A DNA stretch of 64,000 bases from an uncultured Mycoplasmatota bacterium (lineage in GTDB: Bacteria; Bacillota_I; Bacilli_A; RF39; UBA660), in NCBI GenBank assembly GCA_947576095.1, contig CANPPW010000002.1, positions 3,776-67,775 of the forward strand. The letters are read 5' to 3'. The notes beneath the pieces were generated by a model. That model was not told the origin of the DNA, made no database searches, and was given only the letters and a program-made list of their open reading frames with translations. The translations under genes and the position numbers were made by a program. Below, one piece after another: positions 6,545 to 58,594 of the stretch (position 1 is its first letter; every line of letters starts with the position of its first letter).

Positions 6545-7522
6545 ATGGGAATACTTAATAAATTTAAAAAAATATTTGATCATAAAAGTGAGGATGAAAA
6601 AAAAGATTTGGAACTTTATGATAAAGGTCTTTCTAAAACTAGAGGTGAATTTGTTTCAAAACTAAATCTTTTGACGATGAAATATAATAAAATTGATGAA
6701 GGATATTTTGATGAATTAGAGGAAATATTAATTATGGCAGATATTGGTGTAGATACAGTAATGTCATTTATTGATAAACTAAAAAAAAGAGTAAGACATG
6801 AAAATATTACATCAGCAGAATCTTTGAAAGAAATGATTGTTGATGAAATGTTTATTATTTATGTGGATAGTGATATTATTGAGAATAAAATTCATTATGC
6901 TAAGGAAGGGCCCACTGTTCTTTTATATGTTGGTGTAAATGGTGTTGGGAAAACGACAACCATTGGGAAAATGGCTTATCAGTTAAAAAAATCAGGAAAA
7001 AAGGTTTTATTAGTTGCAGGAGATACTTTTAGAGCTGGAGCTGTAGAACAATTAATAGAGTGGGGAGATAAAACGTCCTGTGATGTAATATATAAGGAAA
7101 ATGCAGACCCATCTAGTGTTATATATGATTCTCTTTTGAAAGCAAAAGAAGAAGCTTATGATGTGGTTTTAATTGATACTGCAGGTAGACTGCAGAACAA
7201 GGTTGGGTTAATGAAGGAACTTGAGAAAATGAATAAAGTTATTGGAAATTTAATTGAAAATGCGCCACATGAAACACTCCTTGTAGTAGATGCGACAACA
7301 GGACAAAATGGTATTAGTCAGGCTAAAAGTTTTAAAGAAATTACTAATATTACAGGAATTGTATTGACAAAATTAGATGGTACAGCCAAGGGAGGAATTG
7401 TTCTTGCGATTAAAGGGGAAACAAAAATTCCTGTTAAATATGTTGGACTTGGTGAAGGAAAAGAAGATCTTAAAGTTTTTGATATAGAAAATTATATTTA
7501 TGGATTATTTAAGGAGTGGTAA
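6545..7522 (+). CDS. ftsY: Signal recognition particle receptor FtsY
   Basis: GVNGVGKTTTIGK P-loop, DTAGR, TKLDGTAKGG motifs. Confidence 0.92.
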   Translation: MGILNKFKKIFDHKSEDEKKDLELYDKGLSKTRGEFVSKLNLLTMKYNKIDEGYFDELEEILIMADIGVDTVMSFIDKLKKRVRHENITSAESLKEMIVDEMFIIYVDSDIIENKIHYAKEGPTVLLYVGVNGVGKTTTIGKMAYQLKKSGKKVLLVAGDTFRAGAVEQLIEWGDKTSCDVIYKENADPSSVIYDSLLKAKEEAYDVVLIDTAGRLQNKVGLMKELEKMNKVIGNLIENAPHETLLVVDATTGQNGISQAKSFKEITNITGIVLTKLDGTAKGGIVLAIKGETKIPVKYVGLGEGKEDLKVFDIENYIYGLFKEW

Positions 7523-7523
7523 T

Positions 7524-7787
7524 ATGCATACAAAAACGATTGAATGGAAAATAGATAATAAAATAGGTGTTTGGCTTCAACTGCTTGTAAGCATTCCCCT
7601 TTTGATTTTTGTTGTTTTTTACTTTTTTAATAAAAATACAGTCCCCCTTTTAATGGGAACTGCTTCTATATTTTTGTTTTTAGGTGCTTATAATAATTTT
7701 AAATATTATAAAAGAAAATATATGACTTATTTATATCTTATTGTAGGAAGTATTTTACTTATAGATTTTATAACAAAGGTATTTTAA
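7524..7787 (+). CDS. Small two-TM membrane protein, hypothetical
   Basis: GGAGTGG RBS 5 nt upstream of ATG 7524. Two hydrophobic helices. Stop overlaps ylxM start (TAATG). Confidence 0.5.
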   Translation: MHTKTIEWKIDNKIGVWLQLLVSIPLLIFVVFYFFNKNTVPLLMGTASIFLFLGAYNNFKYYKRKYMTYLYLIVGSILLIDFITKVF

Positions 7788-8080
7788 TGGAAAATAAAAT
7801 TTATATAAGTAATTTATTTGATTTATATGAGGGATTATTAACCGATAAACAAAAAGAATATTTTAAGGCTTATTATTTTGATGATTTAAGTTTATCAGAA
7901 TTAAGTGAGAATTATCATATTAGTAGAAATGCTATACACAAGCAAATTAAAGAAGCTATTTATAAACTACAGTTTTATGAAGAAAAATTAATGCTTTATC
8001 AAAAGAAAAAAAGAATATATGATATAATGAATCAAATAGAAGATCATCATATTAAAGAACAATTAAAAGAATTATTATAG
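7787..8080 (+). CDS. ylxM: YlxM/p13-like DNA-binding protein (UPF0122, sigma-70 region-4-like HTH)
   Basis: LFDLYEGLLTDKQKEYFKAYYFDDLSLSELSENYHISRNAIHKQIKEA matches the YlxM family. Canonical position immediately after ftsY. Confidence 0.75.
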   Translation: MENKIYISNLFDLYEGLLTDKQKEYFKAYYFDDLSLSELSENYHISRNAIHKQIKEAIYKLQFYEEKLMLYQKKKRIYDIMNQIEDHHIKEQLKELL

Positions 8081-8090
8081 GGAGGCTTTT

Positions 8091-9854
8091 ATGCTAGGAA
8101 AAATCGTTTATATTGGGGATAATGTAGCCCATTTACAAATTGATAAAACACAGAGGCTTGCGGAAAATTTAATGAATATGCATATTATTTTCGAAGATCA
8201 TAATAAAAAAATTTTAGGGGAAGCTTATGATGTTGGCGAAGATATCATTAAAGTTCGCTTTTTAGGTGAAATTGTAGGGAATCATTTTGTAGGTGGTGTG
8301 ATTCGTAAACCCACCTTATCTGCTAAGCCTAGGATGATTACACCAGAAGAAATTAGGTTGATTGTGGGAGAAGATAATGATAGTAGTTTACCTCTTGGAC
8401 ATTCACCATTATATGATAATTGTCCTATTCATGTAGACATTAATGAATTATTTAGCAATCATTTGGCTATTTTTGGGAATAGTGGGAGTGGTAAATCTTG
8501 TGGTGTAGCCCGCCTTTTACAAAATGTTTTTCATAATCAAAAGCTTCTTCCCTATAAAGCCAACTTTTTAATTTTTGATGCTTATGGAGAATATCACAAT
8601 GCATTTATGTCTTTAAACCAAATTAACCCTAATTTTAATTTTAAATTTTATACAACCAATGAACAGGACCTAAAGGAAGGCGGGGAGAGGATACGGATTC
8701 CTTTATGGCTTATGAATTTAGATGATATGGCTTTATTATTAGATGCCGAAAAACATGCTCAATTATCAATTATTGAAAGAATGTTAAAATTAGTTAGAAT
8801 TTTTACAGAAGATGATGAAGGATCCAATCAATATAAAAATCATTTAATAGCAAAGGCAATTATGGCCATTTTATACACCAATCAAACAGCATCTAGTAAA
8901 AGAGATGATATTTTTTCTATTTTAAGTACTTGTTCAACTCCTGAATTTAATACAGAAGCACCAGTAAAAGGAATTGGTTATGTTAGGAAATTTAGGGAAT
9001 GTTTTACAATCGATACAGCTGGTAATTTTACAGAAAGTGTTTTGGTTACACAGTATATATCTAGCTTTATTGATGAAAAACTAGATAATTATGAACCTAC
9101 TTCTAATCATTATTTTACTCTTTTAGATTTAGAAAAGGCTTTAAATTTTACTTTAATTTCAGAGGGACTTTTAAAAAATGAAAAAGCATATAATGATGCT
9201 GTTACATTAAAGGTTAGACTTCATTCTATTTTAGTAGGGGCAAATGCACGATTTTTTGATTTTCCGAGTTATATTACATTAGAAAATTTTATATCTAGTT
9301 TGGTTTCTTATAATGGAAGAAAAGCACAAATTGTTAATTTTAATTTAGAAGATGTAGATGATTCTCTTGCTAAAGTGATTGTAAAAATATTTTCAAGATT
9401 TTTATTTGAATTTACAAAAAAATTATCAAATCGTGCTACTATCCCCTTTCATTTATTTTTAGAAGAATGTCATAGATATGTACAAAATGATAATGATAAG
9501 TATTTATTAGGTTATAATATTTTTGATCGAATTGCCAAAGAGGGCCGTAAATATGGACTTATGTTCAATCTTATTTCCCAAAGACCTGTTGAAATATCTG
9601 AAACGGTTATTTCTCAGTGTAGTAACTTTATTATTTTTAAAATGACACATCCAAGAGATTTAGATTATATTAAAAAAATGCTACCTAATATTAGTGCAGA
9701 TGTTATAGAGAAACAAAAAAGTTTACAACCAGGAACTTGTATTGCCTTTGGACGAGCATTTAAAGTTCCTATGATTATAAGAATGGATATGCCTTCTCCA
9801 GAACCACATAGTAGTAACTGTGATGTTGTAGATACATGGCAGGTACATCGATAA
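8091..9854 (+). CDS. HerA/DUF87-family ATPase (FtsK-HerA superfamily; N-terminal HAS-barrel-like region)
   Basis: Walker A GNSGSGKS, Walker B FLFLEECHRY, HerA-type REGRKYGLMFNLISQRPVEIS. 587 aa. Start 10 nt after ylxM stop. Confidence 0.75.
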   Translation: MLGKIVYIGDNVAHLQIDKTQRLAENLMNMHIIFEDHNKKILGEAYDVGEDIIKVRFLGEIVGNHFVGGVIRKPTLSAKPRMITPEEIRLIVGEDNDSSLPLGHSPLYDNCPIHVDINELFSNHLAIFGNSGSGKSCGVARLLQNVFHNQKLLPYKANFLIFDAYGEYHNAFMSLNQINPNFNFKFYTTNEQDLKEGGERIRIPLWLMNLDDMALLLDAEKHAQLSIIERMLKLVRIFTEDDEGSNQYKNHLIAKAIMAILYTNQTASSKRDDIFSILSTCSTPEFNTEAPVKGIGYVRKFRECFTIDTAGNFTESVLVTQYISSFIDEKLDNYEPTSNHYFTLLDLEKALNFTLISEGLLKNEKAYNDAVTLKVRLHSILVGANARFFDFPSYITLENFISSLVSYNGRKAQIVNFNLEDVDDSLAKVIVKIFSRFLFEFTKKLSNRATIPFHLFLEECHRYVQNDNDKYLLGYNIFDRIAKEGRKYGLMFNLISQRPVEISETVISQCSNFIIFKMTHPRDLDYIKKMLPNISADVIEKQKSLQPGTCIAFGRAFKVPMIIRMDMPSPEPHSSNCDVVDTWQVHR

Positions 9855-10283
9855 AAATGTAATAAAAAAACACTTTTATGATGTTACTTGAAAATAAGGG
9901 GATTTTCATTTTAAGCTGTAAAAAACTGTCAATATCATTTGAGTAACTGGAAATTTCTAGATTTTCCAATTCATAAGCAATGTCAATCATGGTTTTATTT
10001 TATCAGTAAAAGTTCTTTGAGCAGAATCTGGATCACTGTAGTCCTTATTGATTCATTCCCATCTTCTCAGTAAGAAATCAAAATTGCTTTTTCTTCAAGT
10101 AATCTTATGAAAAGAGAGATCATTAATAAAAAATGAGGTGTATGAATACCTCTGTTTTTCATATTATTTACAGATTTTTAAATAATAAATAGAATTGTGC
10201 CAATCAAAGGGGGCTAGTAAAAAAATGATAAATGTGATAGACTAGAAAAGTAAAGTAGGAAAATAGAAGTAAGGAGAGATAGA

Positions 10284-11510
10284 ATGAAAAGGAAAAATGG
10301 ATTTACATTAATTGAACTATTAGCTGTTATAGTTATACTTGCTATCATTGCACTTATTACTTCTCCAATTGTGATAGGTGTAATAGATAAATCGAGAAAA
10401 GAAGCGTTTAGAGATTCCGCATATGGAGTGATAGAAGCAGGAAGAATCTATTACTTAGAGAGTGTAGCAGATACCAATGCATTTACAGGAAAAACATTTG
10501 ATTTATCAAAGGGAGAGTTAAAATTGTCAGGAGAAAAACCAAAGGAAGGAACTCTTGAAATAAAAGATGACGGAAAAATGATTCTTATGATGCATAATGG
10601 TAATTATTGTGCTACAAAGAGTGAGGATAAAGAGACTGTTGAAATCAGTAAATTGGCAGATGGAAAATGTGAAATACAGGAAAATAATAGTGGAGCACAA
10701 ACAATTCGTGATATGGGTGTAGTAACATCTGGTGATGGATTGTATGTAAATGAACCTAATTTAGGTGGTGGTCATGTATTCAAAGGGACAAATCCAAACA
10801 ATTTATTATTATTTGATAATAAATGCTGGAGTGTTATCAGTGTAGAAGATAACGATGAAATTAAAATTATTTATGAAGGAGAAGCTGCTGATAGTACCAT
10901 TTGTACAAGAAACGGAGATGGTGGTTCACCAGGAACTTGGCAGTGGAATGCGAGTAATAATTGGCATGATGAAGATTTATCGGTTCGTAGTAAACTAGAG
11001 GGGATAGCAAGTGGACAAAGATGGAATGACTTTAAAAAGATGACAAGGTTAGATAAGGTATCTGATCATGCTTGGAATGTAGGGGCTGTTACAGTTGATA
11101 TTTATAGTGGTGGTAGCATTCAGGAGTTATTAGAACAAGAAAAGAATGGGAAAGATCCATCTTGGTCTACAGAAATTTCTAGTAAGTGGAATAATAAACT
11201 TGGTCTTATTAATGTAAGTGATGTTGTTAAGTCATCTACAAGTTCAAGATGTACATCTGGAGTATGGGGGACTATGATTGGTGCCTATTTACCTGATATA
11301 TGTGGGAATGAAAGTTACCTTGTAAAAAATTATGCATATTGGACATTAAATGCGGTAACCAATGGTAATGTTGCTGCATCTTCAGGAAATGCTTCAAATA
11401 GTGGATATTTGTCAAATAATTTTCTTGGTGTTCGTCCTGTTTTATATTTAAATAGTGATGTAGAAATTACGGGAACTGGAACGAGTGCTGATCCATTTGT
11501 TGTAGCTTAG
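10284..11510 (+). CDS. Large prepilin-type (class III signal peptide) protein, paralog 1
   Basis: N-terminus MKRKNG/FTLIELLAVIVILAIIAL is a type IV pilin N-methylation motif with Glu at +5. 408 aa. C-terminus ...GVRPVLYLNSDVEITGTGTSADPFVVA. Confidence 0.7.
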   Translation: MKRKNGFTLIELLAVIVILAIIALITSPIVIGVIDKSRKEAFRDSAYGVIEAGRIYYLESVADTNAFTGKTFDLSKGELKLSGEKPKEGTLEIKDDGKMILMMHNGNYCATKSEDKETVEISKLADGKCEIQENNSGAQTIRDMGVVTSGDGLYVNEPNLGGGHVFKGTNPNNLLLFDNKCWSVISVEDNDEIKIIYEGEAADSTICTRNGDGGSPGTWQWNASNNWHDEDLSVRSKLEGIASGQRWNDFKKMTRLDKVSDHAWNVGAVTVDIYSGGSIQELLEQEKNGKDPSWSTEISSKWNNKLGLINVSDVVKSSTSSRCTSGVWGTMIGAYLPDICGNESYLVKNYAYWTLNAVTNGNVAASSGNASNSGYLSNNFLGVRPVLYLNSDVEITGTGTSADPFVVA

Positions 11511-11524
11511 TTTTAAATAAATCA

Positions 11525-11568
11525 ATATACATAACCTCTTTGTGTAGGAGGCATATGTATATTTTTTA
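11525..11568 (+). terminator. Rho-independent terminator after pilin-like gene
   Basis: Long imperfect hairpin (ATACATAACCTC...GGAGGCATATGTAT) followed by TTTTTT. Confidence 0.5.
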
Positions 11569-11617
11569 TGCTTCAATGAGTCTAATTGAAATGGACCTTT
11601 AAAAATAAAAAAATACA

Positions 11618-19694: not shown

Positions 19695-20825
19695 ATGAAA
19701 AAATTATTATTTATAACAATTATATTATTTTGCTGTTGTTCTGCGAAAGCGATTGAGCCAGTAGGGATTACAAAAAAAGCTACAGAAGTTTATTCTACCA
19801 AAACACTCACAAATGGGAAGAGGGTTCGGGCACAATTATTTTATCTTTATGTGAATGATGAAATTGCATATTGTATAGAACCTGGTGTTGTTTTGCATGA
19901 TATTCCATATCAGTCCAGTATGGATTTTGAGTCATTTGGAATTTCGGATGACATAAGGGAAGAATTGGAGAGAATTGCTTATTATGGATATGATTATGAG
20001 AATCATCAAAATTTATATTATTATATGGCAACTCAACAATTAATTTGGGAAAAAATGGGATCCCAAAATATAGTCTGGGATACAGCAAGTAATGATTTAC
20101 CTAATATTGATGATTATAAGAAAGAGATTCTGCGTTTGATGGAAAAACATAATGTATTTCCTAGTTTTGCAGAAAGTACTATATCTGTGAAGGTTGGGGA
20201 ACCCTATAAATTGGTAGATCAGAATGGTGTTCTTGATGATTTTGAAGGTGATGGTATAAAAATTGAAAATAATACTATTATTTTCGATAGTAGTGAAGAA
20301 GTAACCAAAACATATACCTTACATCAAAAAAGAAGAAAGTCTGTTAGTTTTGCCTATTTTGCTAATTCATCACAAAGTTTGGCAACATTTGGGCTTTCCA
20401 ACCCCCAGCAAAAGCATTTTTCCTTTTCAGTTAAATTTTTGAAAGAAAAGGGGCGAATTATTCTTACGAAAAAGGATGGTAGTACTCAATTACCATTAGA
20501 GGGAGCAACATTTATTTTATATGATCAAAATCATGTTTTATTAGAAAAAAAGGTCAGCTCTTCAAATGGTGTGATTACTTGGGATAATCTTCCTTATGGA
20601 AAATACTTTATTAAGGAAGAATCTGCCCCAAAGGGATATGTTTTACTGGATGAAGAAATAGAAGTCCATTTATCTCAAAAAGAAAAACAGATTATTACTT
20701 GTAATCAGCCAACTCAAATGCCTATAACAAGTAACATAGATTCTAAATATGAAAGATTAGCACTATCATTTTTTGGTGCTGGATGTATTTTACTTTATGT
20801 TTTTAAAAAGATTTTTAAAAGTTAG
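19695..20825 (+). CDS. Secreted cell-surface protein with N-terminal TQXA/thioester-like domain, Cna-B/prealbumin-like domain and C-terminal hydrophobic anchor
   Basis: Signal peptide. YCIEPG ... ATQQLIWE motifs. TFILYDQNHVLL...GKYFIKEESAPKGYVL is CnaB-like. C-terminal hydrophobic stretch plus KKIFKS tail with no canonical LPXTG. Confidence 0.55.
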   Translation: MKKLLFITIILFCCCSAKAIEPVGITKKATEVYSTKTLTNGKRVRAQLFYLYVNDEIAYCIEPGVVLHDIPYQSSMDFESFGISDDIREELERIAYYGYDYENHQNLYYYMATQQLIWEKMGSQNIVWDTASNDLPNIDDYKKEILRLMEKHNVFPSFAESTISVKVGEPYKLVDQNGVLDDFEGDGIKIENNTIIFDSSEEVTKTYTLHQKRRKSVSFAYFANSSQSLATFGLSNPQQKHFSFSVKFLKEKGRIILTKKDGSTQLPLEGATFILYDQNHVLLEKKVSSSNGVITWDNLPYGKYFIKEESAPKGYVLLDEEIEVHLSQKEKQIITCNQPTQMPITSNIDSKYERLALSFFGAGCILLYVFKKIFKS

Positions 20826-21336
20826 TATATTTCTTTGTTTTGTGATAGGATTTCTTTTCCTTTTCTTTATTTATTATAGGATATATAGGTATAGTAAAAT
20901 AGAAAAAAAGTTCATTCATGAAAAACAGGTAGAGGAACAAAGATATACACAAATTCCCTATATAGAAATTCCTACTTTGCACATTTCAAAAATCATTAAA
21001 TCAAGTACAGATAAAGAGATATTAGATAAATATTACATTGGCATTTGGAACAAAGAAAAAAATATTGATCAAATAAATCATCTAGTTTTAGCAGGACATA
21101 ATGTGAAAAGCGTGTTTGGTACTTTACACAAAATAGAAATAGGAGATAAGGTGTATATTTTTTATAAAGATAAAAAATATATTTATCAAGTATCTTTAAA
21201 AAAGGAGATTTACATAACGGAGATGGATTATTTAAAAGATACGAATTATAAAAAATTATCTTTACTCACATGCACAAAAAACAACCAAATTAGGTTGTTA
21301 GTACAAGCTATATTTCAAGAAAGCCATTCTCTTTAA
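20773..21336 (+). CDS. Sortase-family transpeptidase
   Basis: N-terminal TM. His (LVLAGHN), Cys (LSLLTCT = TLXTC) and Arg (IRLLVQA) triad. Overlaps the end of the upstream surface-protein gene. Confidence 0.7.
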   Translation: MVLDVFYFMFLKRFLKVSIFLCFVIGFLFLFFIYYRIYRYSKIEKKFIHEKQVEEQRYTQIPYIEIPTLHISKIIKSSTDKEILDKYYIGIWNKEKNIDQINHLVLAGHNVKSVFGTLHKIEIGDKVYIFYKDKKYIYQVSLKKEIYITEMDYLKDTNYKKLSLLTCTKNNQIRLLVQAIFQESHSL

Positions 21337-39283: not shown

Positions 39284-39310
39284 CAAACCGTTTTTGATAA
39301 CGGCTTTTTT
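39284..39310 (+). terminator. Rho-independent terminator after ftsX
   Basis: AAACCGTT...AACGGC followed by TTTTTT. Confidence 0.5.
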
Positions 39311-39361: not shown

Positions 39362-39370
39362 TGTTATAAT
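39362..39370 (+). promoter_or_regulatory. Extended -10 promoter (TGTTATAAT) for pilin-like paralog 2
   Basis: TGnTATAAT consensus match. Confidence 0.5.
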
Positions 39371-39425: not shown

Positions 39426-40658
39426 ATGAATAGAAAAGGTTTTACATTAATAGAATTATTAGCGGTTATTGTAATTCTTGCAATATTAGCAGTACTAGTT
39501 ACTCCTATGGTCAATGATACAATTAATAATGCTAAACAGAAAACATTCAAAAATACAGTGGAAGGAATGATTCGAAGTATTCAATTGGATGCATCTGATA
39601 AAGATTATTCTGCAGCAAAATATACTGTTGCAGATGGAGTTATATTAGATGAAAGTGGAAATAAAGTTCATACTAGTGGTGGATCCAATGAAAATGGAAC
39701 AATTCATATCGATGAAGATGGTAATATTACTTTAAGTGTTCATGATAACAAATGGTGTGCTACTAAAACAGCCAGTAATAATAAAATAGAGATGAGTAAA
39801 TTTGAAGAAGGGGCCTGTGGTGTTATTGAGACTACGAATGGTGCGCAGACAATTATTGACTTAGGAATTACTGAATCTGGAGAGGGCCTTTATGAAAATC
39901 CTAAACAAAATGGTGGTGGCTATGTATTTAAAGGTGGTCAAAATAAGAACAATTTAATTTTTGATGACAAATGTTGGTATGTAATTGGCATAGATGGGAA
40001 TAATCAAGTTAAGCTAATTTTGAATAGAAAAGCTCAAGATGGAAAATGTAGGAGTGATAATGCTACTTATGATTTAAGTGTTGCTTGGAATGGGACACAA
40101 AGTTCTTATACGAATTATTGGTTTGATAGCAAAACAACAATGCGAACTACATTAGAATCACTCGCAAATGGACAATCTTTTAATGGATTTTCTATAGAAA
40201 ATTTAGATAAAGTGGCAAATCATACATGGAATGTGGGAGCTGTAAATGCTTCCATACAATTAGGAGCTCCAACAAATATTTCTTCTATATTAGAACAAGA
40301 AAAAAATGGGGGAATTTCTAGTTGGCCAGCAGCAGGCCCCTATCAGTGGCAAAATAAGGTGGGTCTTCTTAATGTAAGTGATGCCATGAATGGTTCTACA
40401 ATGTCAGTTTGTCAATCAGAATCATGGGGAGATTATCTATTTGCTTATATTCCATATTTCTGTGTTGAACAAAATTCTATCTCTCCATCTGGATGGACCC
40501 TTAATGCATATGAATATGATAAGCGGGCTGTAGTTTTCAGTTCAGAGCTGACTAAACATACCTATCAAGAAGAATATTTTGTACCAGTCATATATTTAAA
40601 TTCTAATGTCAAAATAACAGGAACAGGAACAGTAGATGATCCATTTGTTACGACATAA
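39426..40658 (+). CDS. Large prepilin-type (class III signal peptide) protein, paralog 2
   Basis: MNRKG/FTLIELLAVIVILAILAVL. 410 aa. Shares blocks with 10284-11510 (NGAQTI, GGG.VFKG, LLFD.KCW.VI, HxWNVGAV, ILEQEKNG, LNVSD, P.LYLNS.V.ITGTGT..DPFV). Confidence 0.7.
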   Translation: MNRKGFTLIELLAVIVILAILAVLVTPMVNDTINNAKQKTFKNTVEGMIRSIQLDASDKDYSAAKYTVADGVILDESGNKVHTSGGSNENGTIHIDEDGNITLSVHDNKWCATKTASNNKIEMSKFEEGACGVIETTNGAQTIIDLGITESGEGLYENPKQNGGGYVFKGGQNKNNLIFDDKCWYVIGIDGNNQVKLILNRKAQDGKCRSDNATYDLSVAWNGTQSSYTNYWFDSKTTMRTTLESLANGQSFNGFSIENLDKVANHTWNVGAVNASIQLGAPTNISSILEQEKNGGISSWPAAGPYQWQNKVGLLNVSDAMNGSTMSVCQSESWGDYLFAYIPYFCVEQNSISPSGWTLNAYEYDKRAVVFSSELTKHTYQEEYFVPVIYLNSNVKITGTGTVDDPFVTT

Positions 40659-40672
40659 TTATTATTCTTACA

Positions 40673-40703
40673 GGAGATAGAAAGTGTTTTCTGTCTTTTT
40701 TTT
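40673..40703 (+). terminator. Rho-independent terminator after pilin-like paralog 2
   Basis: GAGATAGAAA-gtgt-TTTCTGTCTT followed by TTTTTTT. Confidence 0.55.
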
Positions 40704-40792
40704 GTAAAAATATAACGGTCATAAATATACCTATGTTAAACAATTTAGTTCTTTTTCTTTAAAATATACATATAGTTACATAGGTGATATGT

Positions 40793-54044: not shown

Positions 54045-55352
54045 ATGTTTGAAAATTTGGGTGAAAGATTAACTCGTGTAGTGGATAAAATGAGAGGATA
54101 TGGAAGGATTACAGAAGAAAATGTAAGTGAAATTGTAAGAGAAATAAGACTTGCATTATTAGAAGCTGATGTAAATTATCAGGTTGTAAAAGAATTTGTT
54201 GCAAATGTAAAGCAAAAGGCTTTAGGAGAAGAAGTAAATAAAAGTTTAAAACCTGGTGAAGTTTTTGTCAAAATTGTAAAAGATGAACTTGTCGAATTAT
54301 TAGGTGGAGATAGTGCACCTCTTTATGTAAATGGTAATCCTAGTATTTTGATGCTTGTAGGTCTTCAAGGAAGTGGAAAAACAACAACAATTGCTAAATT
54401 AGCAAATTATTTAAGAAAAAAAGAACACAAAAAACCACTTTTAGTTGCATGTGATGTATATAGACCAGCTGCAATTGATCAATTAAAGCAATTAGGGAGA
54501 GAACTATCAATTCCTGTATATGATGAAGGAGCAGGAAATCCTATCGAAATTGCCACTCATGCAACTAATTTTGCAAAAGAAAATGGATATGATTATATAT
54601 TAATTGATACTGCAGGAAGACTTCATATTGATGAGAAACTTATGAAAGAGCTTTCTGATATTACAGATGTAATTCATCCACAAGAAACTATACTTGTCTT
54701 AGATAGTATGACAGGACAGGATGCTATACATGTAATTGAGGGATTTCATGAAAAGTTACAGTTAACAGGTGCTATTTTGACAAAGTTAGATGGGGATACA
54801 AAAGGTGGAGTTGCTCTTTCAGTGCGCCATTTAACAAATGTTCCTATAAAATTTATTGGTGTAAGTGAAAAATTAGATGGACTTGAACCTTTTCATCCAG
54901 ACCGAATGGCTTCTCGGATTCTGGGCATGGGTGATCTTCTTTCTATGATCGAGAAAGCCGAAAATATTATGGATCAGGAAGAGGCTTTTGAAGCAGCCAA
55001 AAAGATGAAAAATGGAAAATTTGATTTAGAGGATTTTCTTGTGCAGTTTAAGCAAATAAAAAAATTAGGTCCTTTAGAAAATTTGATTAAGATGATTCCA
55101 GGTGCATCGAAACTAGGACTTCAAAATGTGAAAATTGATCCTAAAGATATTGCCCATATTGAAGCGATCATTCTTTCTATGACCCCTTATGAAAGAAGAC
55201 ATCCTGAGGTGTTAAAAGCTTCTAGGAAACAGAGAATTGCAAAAGGAAGTGCGAGAAGTGTTGAAGAAGTAAATCGCCTTTTAAAACAATTTGAACAAAT
55301 GAAAATGATGATGAAAAAAATGCAAAATGGAAATTTTAAGATGCCATTTTGA
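54045..55352 (+). CDS. ffh: Signal recognition particle protein Ffh
   Basis: GLQGSGKTTT, DTAGR, TKLDGDTKGG and Met-rich C-terminal M domain. Confidence 0.95.
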   Translation: MFENLGERLTRVVDKMRGYGRITEENVSEIVREIRLALLEADVNYQVVKEFVANVKQKALGEEVNKSLKPGEVFVKIVKDELVELLGGDSAPLYVNGNPSILMLVGLQGSGKTTTIAKLANYLRKKEHKKPLLVACDVYRPAAIDQLKQLGRELSIPVYDEGAGNPIEIATHATNFAKENGYDYILIDTAGRLHIDEKLMKELSDITDVIHPQETILVLDSMTGQDAIHVIEGFHEKLQLTGAILTKLDGDTKGGVALSVRHLTNVPIKFIGVSEKLDGLEPFHPDRMASRILGMGDLLSMIEKAENIMDQEEAFEAAKKMKNGKFDLEDFLVQFKQIKKLGPLENLIKMIPGASKLGLQNVKIDPKDIAHIEAIILSMTPYERRHPEVLKASRKQRIAKGSARSVEEVNRLLKQFEQMKMMMKKMQNGNFKMPF

Positions 55353-56953: not shown

Positions 56954-58594
56954 GTGGAAAAAGGTATCAAATTAACAAAAGTAGATTTTATTATTTTAAT
57001 CGTAATTGTATTATTTTATGGAATATTTTCTTTTTATCATTTGGGTTCTTTTGATAATCCCAATAGCTTTGTTACAGGAGGAACATATACCTTTTCTCTT
57101 ACAGAATCTATGAATATTGATAAAATGAGATACTTTGTTGGAAATGAAATGGAATTTATTAAGGTATCTTATTCAGTAGATGGGAAATCTTATACAGAAG
57201 TAAAAACTATCAAGGATAAATATGCTTTTTCCTGGAATGATTTTGAAATAGGAGATAAAATTAAAAATATCCGATTGGAATTGTCTTCAAAAACAACATT
57301 AGGAGAAATTGCTCTTTATAATACAAAAGAAGAGATAGTAACATTACAATCAGATTCTACAAAAGCTCTCAAAATGATCGATGAAAGGCACACTGTTCCT
57401 AAGCAGATTAGTCATTTGAATAGTACCTATTTTGATGAAATTTATTTTGCGAGAACTGCTTATGAATATGCAAACGGACTTCCAGCTTATGAATGGGTCC
57501 ATCCACCACTAGGAAAACTATTGATGGCTATTCCTATAAAATTAGGTAAAATGGCTCCTTTCTATTACCGATTTATGGGGAATGTAGCAGGTATTTTAAT
57601 GCTTCCTGTTTTGTATATATTAGCCAAAAGAATGTTTAAAAAAACAAAATATGCTCTTTTTGCGACTTTACTTTTATGTTTTGATGGATTTCATTATGCA
57701 CATACTAGAATGGCAACAGTAGATAGTTTTTTGGTATTATTTATCCTATTATCTTTTCTGTTTATGTATCAATATCTGCTAAGTAAAAACAAATCATTGA
57801 AACATAGATGTTTTCAACTCTTTTTATCTGGATTATTTATGGGACTTTCTATCTCTGTCAAATGGACAGGTTGTTTTGCCGCTATGGGACTTGCTATTTT
57901 ATTTTTTATCGATTTTTTTAAACGGTATAAGAAAAAAGATGATTTTAGGAATGAAGGAAAAGATGTTATTATTTATTGTACTTTATTTTTTGTAATCATT
58001 CCTATTATCATTTATATCGCTTGTTATTTATGTTTTCCTAATATGTATTATTTTCAGGTAAGAAATACAAGAGAACTAGGTTTTATTATGAAAAATATGT
58101 TTGATTATCATGCAGGATTAAAAGAGCCTCATCCTTTTTATTCTGCTTGGTATACATGGCCTCTTATGCTGAAACCAGTTTGGTATTATGTAGGATATTA
58201 TGGAAACTTAAAGGCAACTATTAGTGGATTTGGGAATCCTATTGTATGGTGGCTGGGATTACTTGGAATGTTTTATATGATATATAAATGTTTTCGAAAA
58301 GATAAAAGGGCTTTTTGTTTACTGATTTTCTATATATGTTTGCTTATTTCTTATTTTAAAATTAGTAGGGGAATGTATTTATATCATTATTTTCCAGCAT
58401 TGCCATTTGCTATTTTAGGTGCCACTTATCTGATTATGGATATAACAGAGAAGTGTAAAAAAAATTATTTTTATATAGGAATACTAGTTTTTGTAATTTA
58501 CTTTTTTATCTATTTTTTTAAAGTTATATCAGGAATATGGATAGAACCACAAGCTTTTGAACCATTAAAATGGTTTGATAGTTGGATTTTTTAA
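56954..58594 (+). CDS. GT39/PMT-family (dolichyl-phosphate-mannose protein mannosyltransferase-like) membrane glycosyltransferase with extra N-terminal domain
   Basis: YFDEIYFARTAYEY (DE motif, loop 1) and HPPLGKLLMA pattern, about 10 TM helices. GTG start after AAAGGAG. Confidence 0.65.
   Translation: MEKGIKLTKVDFIILIVIVLFYGIFSFYHLGSFDNPNSFVTGGTYTFSLTESMNIDKMRYFVGNEMEFIKVSYSVDGKSYTEVKTIKDKYAFSWNDFEIGDKIKNIRLELSSKTTLGEIALYNTKEEIVTLQSDSTKALKMIDERHTVPKQISHLNSTYFDEIYFARTAYEYANGLPAYEWVHPPLGKLLMAIPIKLGKMAPFYYRFMGNVAGILMLPVLYILAKRMFKKTKYALFATLLLCFDGFHYAHTRMATVDSFLVLFILLSFLFMYQYLLSKNKSLKHRCFQLFLSGLFMGLSISVKWTGCFAAMGLAILFFIDFFKRYKKKDDFRNEGKDVIIYCTLFFVIIPIIIYIACYLCFPNMYYFQVRNTRELGFIMKNMFDYHAGLKEPHPFYSAWYTWPLMLKPVWYYVGYYGNLKATISGFGNPIVWWLGLLGMFYMIYKCFRKDKRAFCLLIFYICLLISYFKISRGMYLYHYFPALPFAILGATYLIMDITEKCKKNYFYIGILVFVIYFFIYFFKVISGIWIEPQAFEPLKWFDSWIF

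Follow-up and report, generated by a model that had tools for sequence, protein, structure and literature searches.

What is a bacterium likely to do with two large genes that begin with the signal of a type IV prepilin and lie apart from any recognisable pilus machinery? The question is raised by a stretch of 64,000 nucleotides (here called the window) from an uncultured Mycoplasmatota bacterium (GenBank assembly GCA_947576095.1, contig CANPPW010000002.1), which carries two such genes on its forward strand. Gene 1 (10284..11510) specifies a modular pilin-like protein of 408 amino acids (aa), a pilin module followed by a DUF6273-like head, and gene 2 (39426..40658) specifies a paralog of 410 aa with the same architecture, recognised from its open reading frame (ORF) and by homology. 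The interpretation favoured here, with moderate confidence, is that both are type IV pilins of the modular kind, that their DUF6273 head would be carried on a filament and bind an external ligand, and that recombination under diversifying selection makes its outer part polymorphic.

An earlier sequence-only reading of the window described the pair as paralogous prepilin-type proteins of 410 aa; paralogy and signal have stood, while the length of 410 aa applies to gene 2 alone, gene 1 giving 408 aa, and both proteins are, as it remarked, far larger than ordinary pilins. They are 40% identical end to end (E 3e-96, far beyond chance). The N-termini, MKRKNG/FTLIELLAVIVILAI in gene 1 and MNRKG/FTLIELLAVIVILAI in gene 2, each show a short basic leader that closes with Gly, some 20 aa of hydrophobic sequence and Glu at +5, and the class III signal reported earlier is borne out by scores above cutoff for PF07963 N_methyl (33.8 and 31.6 bits for genes 1 and 2, cutoff 21.2) and TIGR02532 (32.3 and 31.7 bits, cutoff 16.3). 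The gene 1 leader, read from the sequence (10284..10301, + strand), would be cut after Gly6 to leave Phe at +1 and Glu at +5 of the mature protein. A six-frame regular-expression scan of the window found the prepilin motif G/FTLIE at two sites, those of genes 1 and 2 only. Gly at -1, Phe at +1 and Glu at +5 (G6, F7 and E11 of gene 1) are invariant across 46 aligned homologs, and Glu5 is known to be required for filament assembly but not for cleavage. The sequence blocks said to be shared by the two proteins are present in their alignment, except that NGAQTI is exact in gene 2 only and reads SGAQTI in gene 1.

What follows the signal had been taken for a single domain of about 380 aa, and this has to be replaced by two modules, a pilin module reaching to about residue 130 and a head of 278 aa. 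In gene 1 the pilin module (residues 7-130; 10302..10673, + strand) has a long alpha1 helix, a sheet of four to five strands and a Cys109-Cys129 pair that is invariant or nearly so in the 46 homologs. A full-length AlphaFold2 model made from the 46-sequence alignment (predicted local distance difference test, pLDDT, 78) packs a helix of residues 9-64 on strands between residues 70 and 123, so that residues 1-130 are predicted to adopt the pilin fold, an extended alpha1 on an antiparallel beta-sheet. A profile search of PDB sequences gave matches confined to the pilin N-terminal helix (MshA, PilE1 of S. sanguinis and others). Gene 2 is laid out likewise (+ strand), with the leader MNRKG, a pilin module to about residue 130 and a head from residue 131 (nt 39816-40655). 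The stalk also exists on its own: a locus of Candidatus Fimihabitans intestinipullorum (L060) encodes it as a pilin of 124 aa (62% identity), which stands in tandem with two larger proteins, one of 308 aa combining the stalk with leucine-rich repeats (LRR) and one of 382 aa combining it with DUF6273. The window proteins accordingly have the composition of modular pilins, an N_methyl pilin module joined by a linker to an extra module foreign to type IV pili, and the two modules are predicted to fold separately.

The C-terminal head of gene 1 (residues 131-408; 10674..11507, + strand) gave a model with pLDDT 81 and a predicted template modelling score of 0.87 when folded alone. Compared with a library of viral structures, its top matches were phage proteins, several of them annotated as DUF6273 (E 1e-5 to 1e-4), and the model shows the same three-dimensional fold as a solved DUF6273 domain. 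The Pfam family itself, PF19789, matches 27 of the 46 aligned homologs (best E 3.2e-16). The head is best described, from its predicted structure, as a divergent DUF6273 with a probable C-type-lectin-like fold. DUF6273 has been described as a C-type-lectin-like, receptor-binding domain of gut phages that is diversified by a diversity-generating retroelement (DGR) (PMC10743442), which agrees with the lectin-like part of the sequence-only reading; the profile and structure searches which that reading proposed for the C-terminal part, and AlphaFold modelling, were run, and it is they that found the DUF6273-type head. Searching with the head alone among 1.84 billion proteins returned 1,057 cluster representatives (E<=1e-3), most of which carry it behind other N-terminal anchors or as repeats within giant proteins, and it is therefore a mobile extracellular module. 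Among a set of such proteins (P0265-P0405), giant members with DUF6273-like heads occur, P0265 (4,905 aa) having the most matched stretches at 22, and a recurrent non-pilin N-terminus, '...VGYAAFST.L.I.G', stands before such heads and looks like another dedicated signal class.

The new and most informative feature of these genes is a strain-level hypervariable cassette within the head, which was found by comparing strain alleles and occupies codons 203-385 of gene 1 (10890..11438, + strand) and about the same codons of gene 2 (40032..40580, + strand). Contigs from conspecific strains match the window in their flanks at 99.4-100% nucleotide identity and yet carry different alleles. Between gene 1 and a 417-aa allele found on three contigs (L081, L082 and L083), codons 1-202 show 99% aa identity with a synonymous divergence (dS) of 0-0.05, codons 203-385 fall to 49% identity with a dS of 1.02, a nonsynonymous divergence (dN) of 0.43 and nine indel codons, and codons 386-408 are identical. 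Gene 2 and its allele L084/P0003 are 100% identical over codons 1-202, 57% identical over codons 203-385 (dS 0.55, dN 0.39) and 84% identical over codons 386-408. Other alleles are mosaics of different extent: in P0001 the exchange is limited to the last 19 residues, P0414 combines the exchanged tail of P0001 with a variant block spanning about 124-270, and in P0410 six substitutions are clustered at 115-136. The alleles of gene 1 and gene 2 also combine differently on different contigs.

Such sharp boundaries, together with high synonymous divergence, fit old allelic segments imported by homologous recombination and do not fit local mutation, and the sequences show exchange of the cassette between strains within conserved flanks. 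Gene conversion between the two paralogs was considered as its source and rejected, the heads resembling other alleles of their own locus (47% and 56% identity) more than the other paralog (33-41%). What maintains the cassette is most likely diversifying or frequency-dependent selection on a surface that is exposed and serves for binding or as an antigen. Upstream of gene 1, an intergenic stretch of about 294 nt (9886-10180) is replaced by an unrelated 136 nt in the strains with the other allele; the replaced stretch includes the -35 region and an antisense ORF of 71 aa at 9775-9990, and conservation among alleles holds for roughly the final 100 nt ahead of the start codon.

If the two proteins act as the favoured reading supposes, the precursor would insert in the membrane by alpha1N, its hydrophobic helix, and be cut after the Gly by a prepilin peptidase whose gene lies elsewhere, and a type IV filament machine would take up the pilin module. 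A place at or near the filament tip seems most likely, because the head is bulky. The filament would then show the head to an external ligand, which could be a glycan or protein on the host, on mucus, on food particles or on other microbes.

Which machine this might be was sought in the window and around related genes. The sequence-only reading saw no ATPase, platform or prepilin-peptidase gene in the window, and further searching agrees: neither a T2SSE ATPase, a T2SSF platform protein nor an A24 peptidase was found in its 64 kb by annotation of ORFs, Pfam scans, signature regular expressions or tblastn probes. In this search most of the non-overlapping ORFs with 90 aa or more were annotated, either on the window itself or by way of identical contigs, and the remaining ORFs were scanned with Pfam. 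The search was extended to sequence up to 10 kb from some 80 related loci, 1.3 Mb in all. A T2SSE ATPase was present in two of these (L012 and L073), both of the tight adherence (Tad) type; their Tad genes were missed by strict T2SSE and GspF regular expressions and found by tblastn with approximate probes. No prepilin peptidase was found near the roughly 80 loci by a rough-consensus probe, which makes this a weak negative, and no ComG or PilB-type genes were seen there or in the window.

In L012 (4300-12801) the genes run DUF192 (on the - strand), Flp (63 aa), two TadE, ParA/TadZ, a CpaF-like T2SSE, two T2SSF and then members of the present family of 452 and 467 aa, tadC ending at 9969 and the 452-aa member starting at 9971. 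In L073 (6300-10510) the order is Flp, two TadE, TadZ and CpaF, followed 1 nt later by a 172-aa GFTLIE pilin. Across both loci the operon genes comprise DUF192, Flp, two TadE, TadZ, CpaF, TadB and TadC, which GFTLIE pilins either follow or interrupt; two of the GFTLIE-type pilins at these operons are DUF6273-headed members of the family, and N_methyl-type pilins inside an Flp/Tad operon are unusual. The CpaF protein is shared at 78-94% identity by more than 120 clusters, the best 120 matches all being at least 78% identical; these are mostly metagenome or metagenome-assembled genome (MAG) proteins, and the two clusters that carry a source name are both from Bacilli MAGs. The window proteins are not themselves Flp pilins, which have 50-80 aa and a G/XXXXEY motif, for they have 408 and 410 aa and GFTLIE, and the true Flp genes of their relatives are separate, with 63-65 aa and G/QALVEY. 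The Tad system can be taken as a lead to the assembly machine, short of a demonstration, and a Com or Pil system elsewhere in the genome, such as the distant Com/T4P system that the sequence-only reading proposed, may be the machine instead.

Several observations weigh against pilins on a filament. The machinery and peptidase were not located within the window. Adjacency to Tad genes occurs in just two of the approximately 80 family loci, GFTLIE-type pilins are not the usual substrates of Tad systems, and one sporulating member of the clade (L086) has a canonical Tad locus with its own Flp pilin and without N_methyl genes. Neither window protein matches PF19789, even at E<=1, which places both below the Pfam threshold and makes their DUF6273 homology transitive, through the homologs that do match. 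Finally, the head should be able to work without a pilus, as it is also found after N-termini that are not of the pilin type. Another possibility, doubtful but a real contender, is that the class III signal serves for export and anchoring only, and that the cleaved proteins would stay as single surface lectins, membrane-anchored or borne on a short pseudopilus, instead of becoming subunits of a long pilus. They would then resemble the sugar-binding proteins of the archaeal bindosome or the large DUF1559 families of Planctomycetes. It would suit genes that are scattered, monocistronic and present at several loci per MAG, a family in which 67 of the 97 complete pilin-like ORFs in the related loci have at least 200 aa, and a head so often joined to other anchors; PMC3047682 also offers a precedent for class III signals on surface proteins outside filaments. 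An anchor would not need a full globular pilin module and a strictly conserved Glu5, however, and their conservation therefore counts against it, as do the existence of the identical module as an ordinary short pilin in L060 and the position of some members inside or directly after a filament-assembly operon.

The remaining explanations fare worse. It is very unlikely that the proteins are ordinary minor pilins of a ComG competence pilus or of a pseudopilus like that of the type II secretion system, with a structural or priming role and an incidental head. Some homologs are named 'type II secretion system protein' by NCBI and there are weak N-terminal matches to models of ComGC, ComGD and GspG, but these cover the N-terminal helix only and lie far below the equivalog cutoffs (ComGC 20.8 and 32.3 against 75 bits; GspG 26.5 and 33.2 against 88.85 bits); moreover, no comG-like operon occurs in the window or the related loci, and a hypervariable head of 278 aa would be unexpected in core minor pilins. 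Diversification of the head by a DGR is brought to mind by the phage receptor-binding proteins in which DUF6273 is a DGR target (PMC10743442) and by weak structural matches of the head to the DGR targets TvpA and Mtd. It is scarcely conceivable here and is effectively refuted for the window, which has no template-repeat-like copy of either gene and no reverse transcriptase among the ORFs that were Pfam-scanned or had precomputed Pfam hits on identical contigs. The variation itself, spread over some 180 codons with indels and a dS of 0.55-1.0, is just what a DGR would not give, namely point changes at adenines confined to a short variable region, and near identity over codons 1-202 beside 49-57% over codons 203-385, at both loci, marks it as allele replacement by recombination.

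Much of what made the locus look odd belongs to known biology. The sequence-only reading treated the large size and C-terminal domain as an anomaly, but modular pilins are an established category, covering over 1,200 proteins spread across 264 architectures and adhesin designs such as PilB and PilC of S. sanguinis (PMC8179133), so that size and modularity alone are not anomalous. On sequence features the window genes fit this design, with a new head; the hypervariability of that head and the Tad adjacency are the points added, and the observation is otherwise largely explained. The closest likeness is to S. sanguinis PilB, with a von Willebrand factor A (vWA) head, and PilC, whose head is a ConA-like lectin (Raynaud et al. 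2021, PMC8179133; PMC9934059), which combine a class III signal, a pilin module, a linker and a bulky ligand-binding module in a monoderm Firmicute host and are predicted to act in filament-presented adhesion. They differ in having vWA and ConA-like heads rather than DUF6273, and their genes lie inside the pil locus whereas those of the window are orphan and monocistronic. The window heads have, in addition, a strain-variable recombination cassette and possibly a Tad-type machine, and the lineage differs from the modular pilins studied so far in the size of its repertoire as well.

Antigenic variation of PilE in Neisseria offers a comparison, without any claim of membership, in that a conserved N-terminal pilin part is joined to a hypervariable C-terminal part recombined between conserved flanks. 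It differs in that no silent cassettes were detected here and the variation is between strains, and in that the variable part of PilE is the pilin D-region, while that of the window proteins is a separate head module. The DUF6273 systems to be compared are the N-terminal domain of the IgA protease of Thomasclavelia ramosa (9qa6; PMC12402451) and the 'tentaclin' or Mtd-like receptor-binding proteins of phages (PMC10743442); these share an extracellular binding context and a concentration of variability in the domain, whereas the domain of the window proteins is fused to a pilin stalk, falls below the Pfam threshold and varies by allelic recombination rather than by a DGR. A Tad-type pilus cluster with large pilin-like proteins, which is only loosely alike, has also been described in the gut clade TANB77 (PMC11680825). 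Like the present case it comes from uncultured low-GC gut Firmicutes, and it has a Tad ATPase and platform with large pilin-like proteins downstream that have their own promoters; it belongs to another lineage, its pilin sequences are unrelated, and its pilin genes are clustered with the machinery, whereas those of the window lineage are dispersed.

Both genes are isolated amid housekeeping and sporulation genes. Gene 1 follows yunB and the genes for RNase J, FtsY, YlxM and a HerA/DUF87-like ATPase, and precedes gatCAB and the genes for a GGDEF protein, PBP5, a TED-SpaA protein and a sortase; gene 2 stands between prfB, ftsE and ftsX on one side and yabG, veg, spoVG, yabP, divIC and gerQ on the other. 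The host is a spore-forming, uncultured gut bacterium, and the G+C content of the window is 28.7%. Each gene is plausibly monocistronic, as the sequence-only reading held in giving each its own promoter and terminator, for putative signals of this kind flank both. On the + strand, gene 1 is preceded by the terminator of the foregoing gene (10135-10152) and a putative sigma-70-like promoter (10167-10195; TTTACA-17-TAGAAT, a 10/12 match), both from consensus scans, and is followed by a terminator-like hairpin and T-run (11517-11569; RNA fold dG -16.9 kcal/mol, z -4.8). Gene 2, on the same strand, has upstream of it a terminator after ftsX (39288-39303, terminator scan) and a putative extended -10 element read by eye (TGTTATAAT, 39362-39370), and downstream of it a terminator-like hairpin and T-run (40668-40707; dG -12.4 kcal/mol, z -3.0). 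Control by a c-di-GMP-type riboswitch, as for some clostridial pilins, was considered and rejected: no Rfam family reached its gathering threshold anywhere in the 64-kb window, there was no riboswitch 5' of either gene, and the leaders of the two genes gave chance-level matches only.

The positions of both genes are old, with pilin-like genes kept beside the same neighbours in related loci: L038 (68-1444) has a HerA-like gene of 71% identity and, after it, a modular pilin of 582 aa whose unrelated head resembles immunoglobulin (Ig) repeats, and L050 has a large pilin-like ORF after ftsE-ftsX. The HerA/DUF87-like ATPase of the window (587 aa, 8091-9854) lies directly 5' of gene 1, with a terminator between them, and at 188 bits is far below the NCBIfam HerA cutoff of 850. 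Elsewhere in the window, a surface protein with TED and SpaA folds followed by a sortase (19695-21336) would make up a second adhesin or pilus system, this one dependent on sortase, and shows the organism to have a cell wall, and a membrane glycosyltransferase of the PMT family (protein O-mannosyltransferase-like, 546 aa, 56954-58594) could glycosylate surface proteins. The gene ylxM follows ftsY (6545-8080), and ffh, its usual operon partner in Bacillus, is at 54045-55352, 46 kb apart. No tRNA genes were found across the 64 kb.

The family to which the two genes belong is large in uncultured gut Bacilli MAGs and consists mostly of scattered genes. The initial protein search gave about 5,000 matches, in which the full-length relatives, with 380-450 aa, share 28-41% identity, and relatives in the stalk only show about 50% identity over about 130 aa and carry other heads, such as BspA-like LRR (PF13306), Laminin_G_3 (PF13385) and Ig-like repeats; families of 648 aa that share the stalk occur in many copies per contig. 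Species-representative genomes contain at least 385 relatives, overwhelmingly in uncultured gut MAGs and often at several loci per MAG. Most of these MAGs bear the label Bacilli, Tenericutes, Mycoplasmatota or Bacillales, and some have other labels, e.g., Muribaculaceae. The window itself recurs in a few ENA and Logan assemblies, an exact copy of gene 2 is present on one ENA contig (L001), and the housekeeping proteins of the window are 60-83% identical to those of uncultured Bacilli MAGs, the nearest relatives among the loci compared. Tandem triplets of 138-159-aa pilins with near-identical N-terminal and divergent C-terminal halves were seen at two related loci (L014, 1543-3093, just downstream of polC; L077, 9983-11674, with polC about 4 kb upstream and other genes between), and are candidate major pilins of the lineage.

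Modular pilins are thought to give simple type IV filaments new binding functions, and few have been studied. The window proteins add a C-type-lectin-like DUF6273 to the list of their heads, and they do so in a large, mostly unnamed family of uncultured gut Bacilli. The cassette bounded by recombination would mark the exposed face of the domain and give a handle on ligand specificity and on immune or phage pressure, and the Tad adjacency seen in relatives is a testable lead on the assembling machine. It could be speculated further, although as a whole this is unlikely, that a clade of small-genome gut Bacilli uses dispersed, independently transcribed modular pilins with T4a-type signals and DUF6273, LRR, ConA-like or Ig-repeat heads on one conserved Tad-type machine, the heads being polymorphic through cassette recombination. 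If this were true, the clade would possess a system of adhesin or antigen variation built on pilins, and a Tad system that handles N_methyl-type substrates other than Flp.

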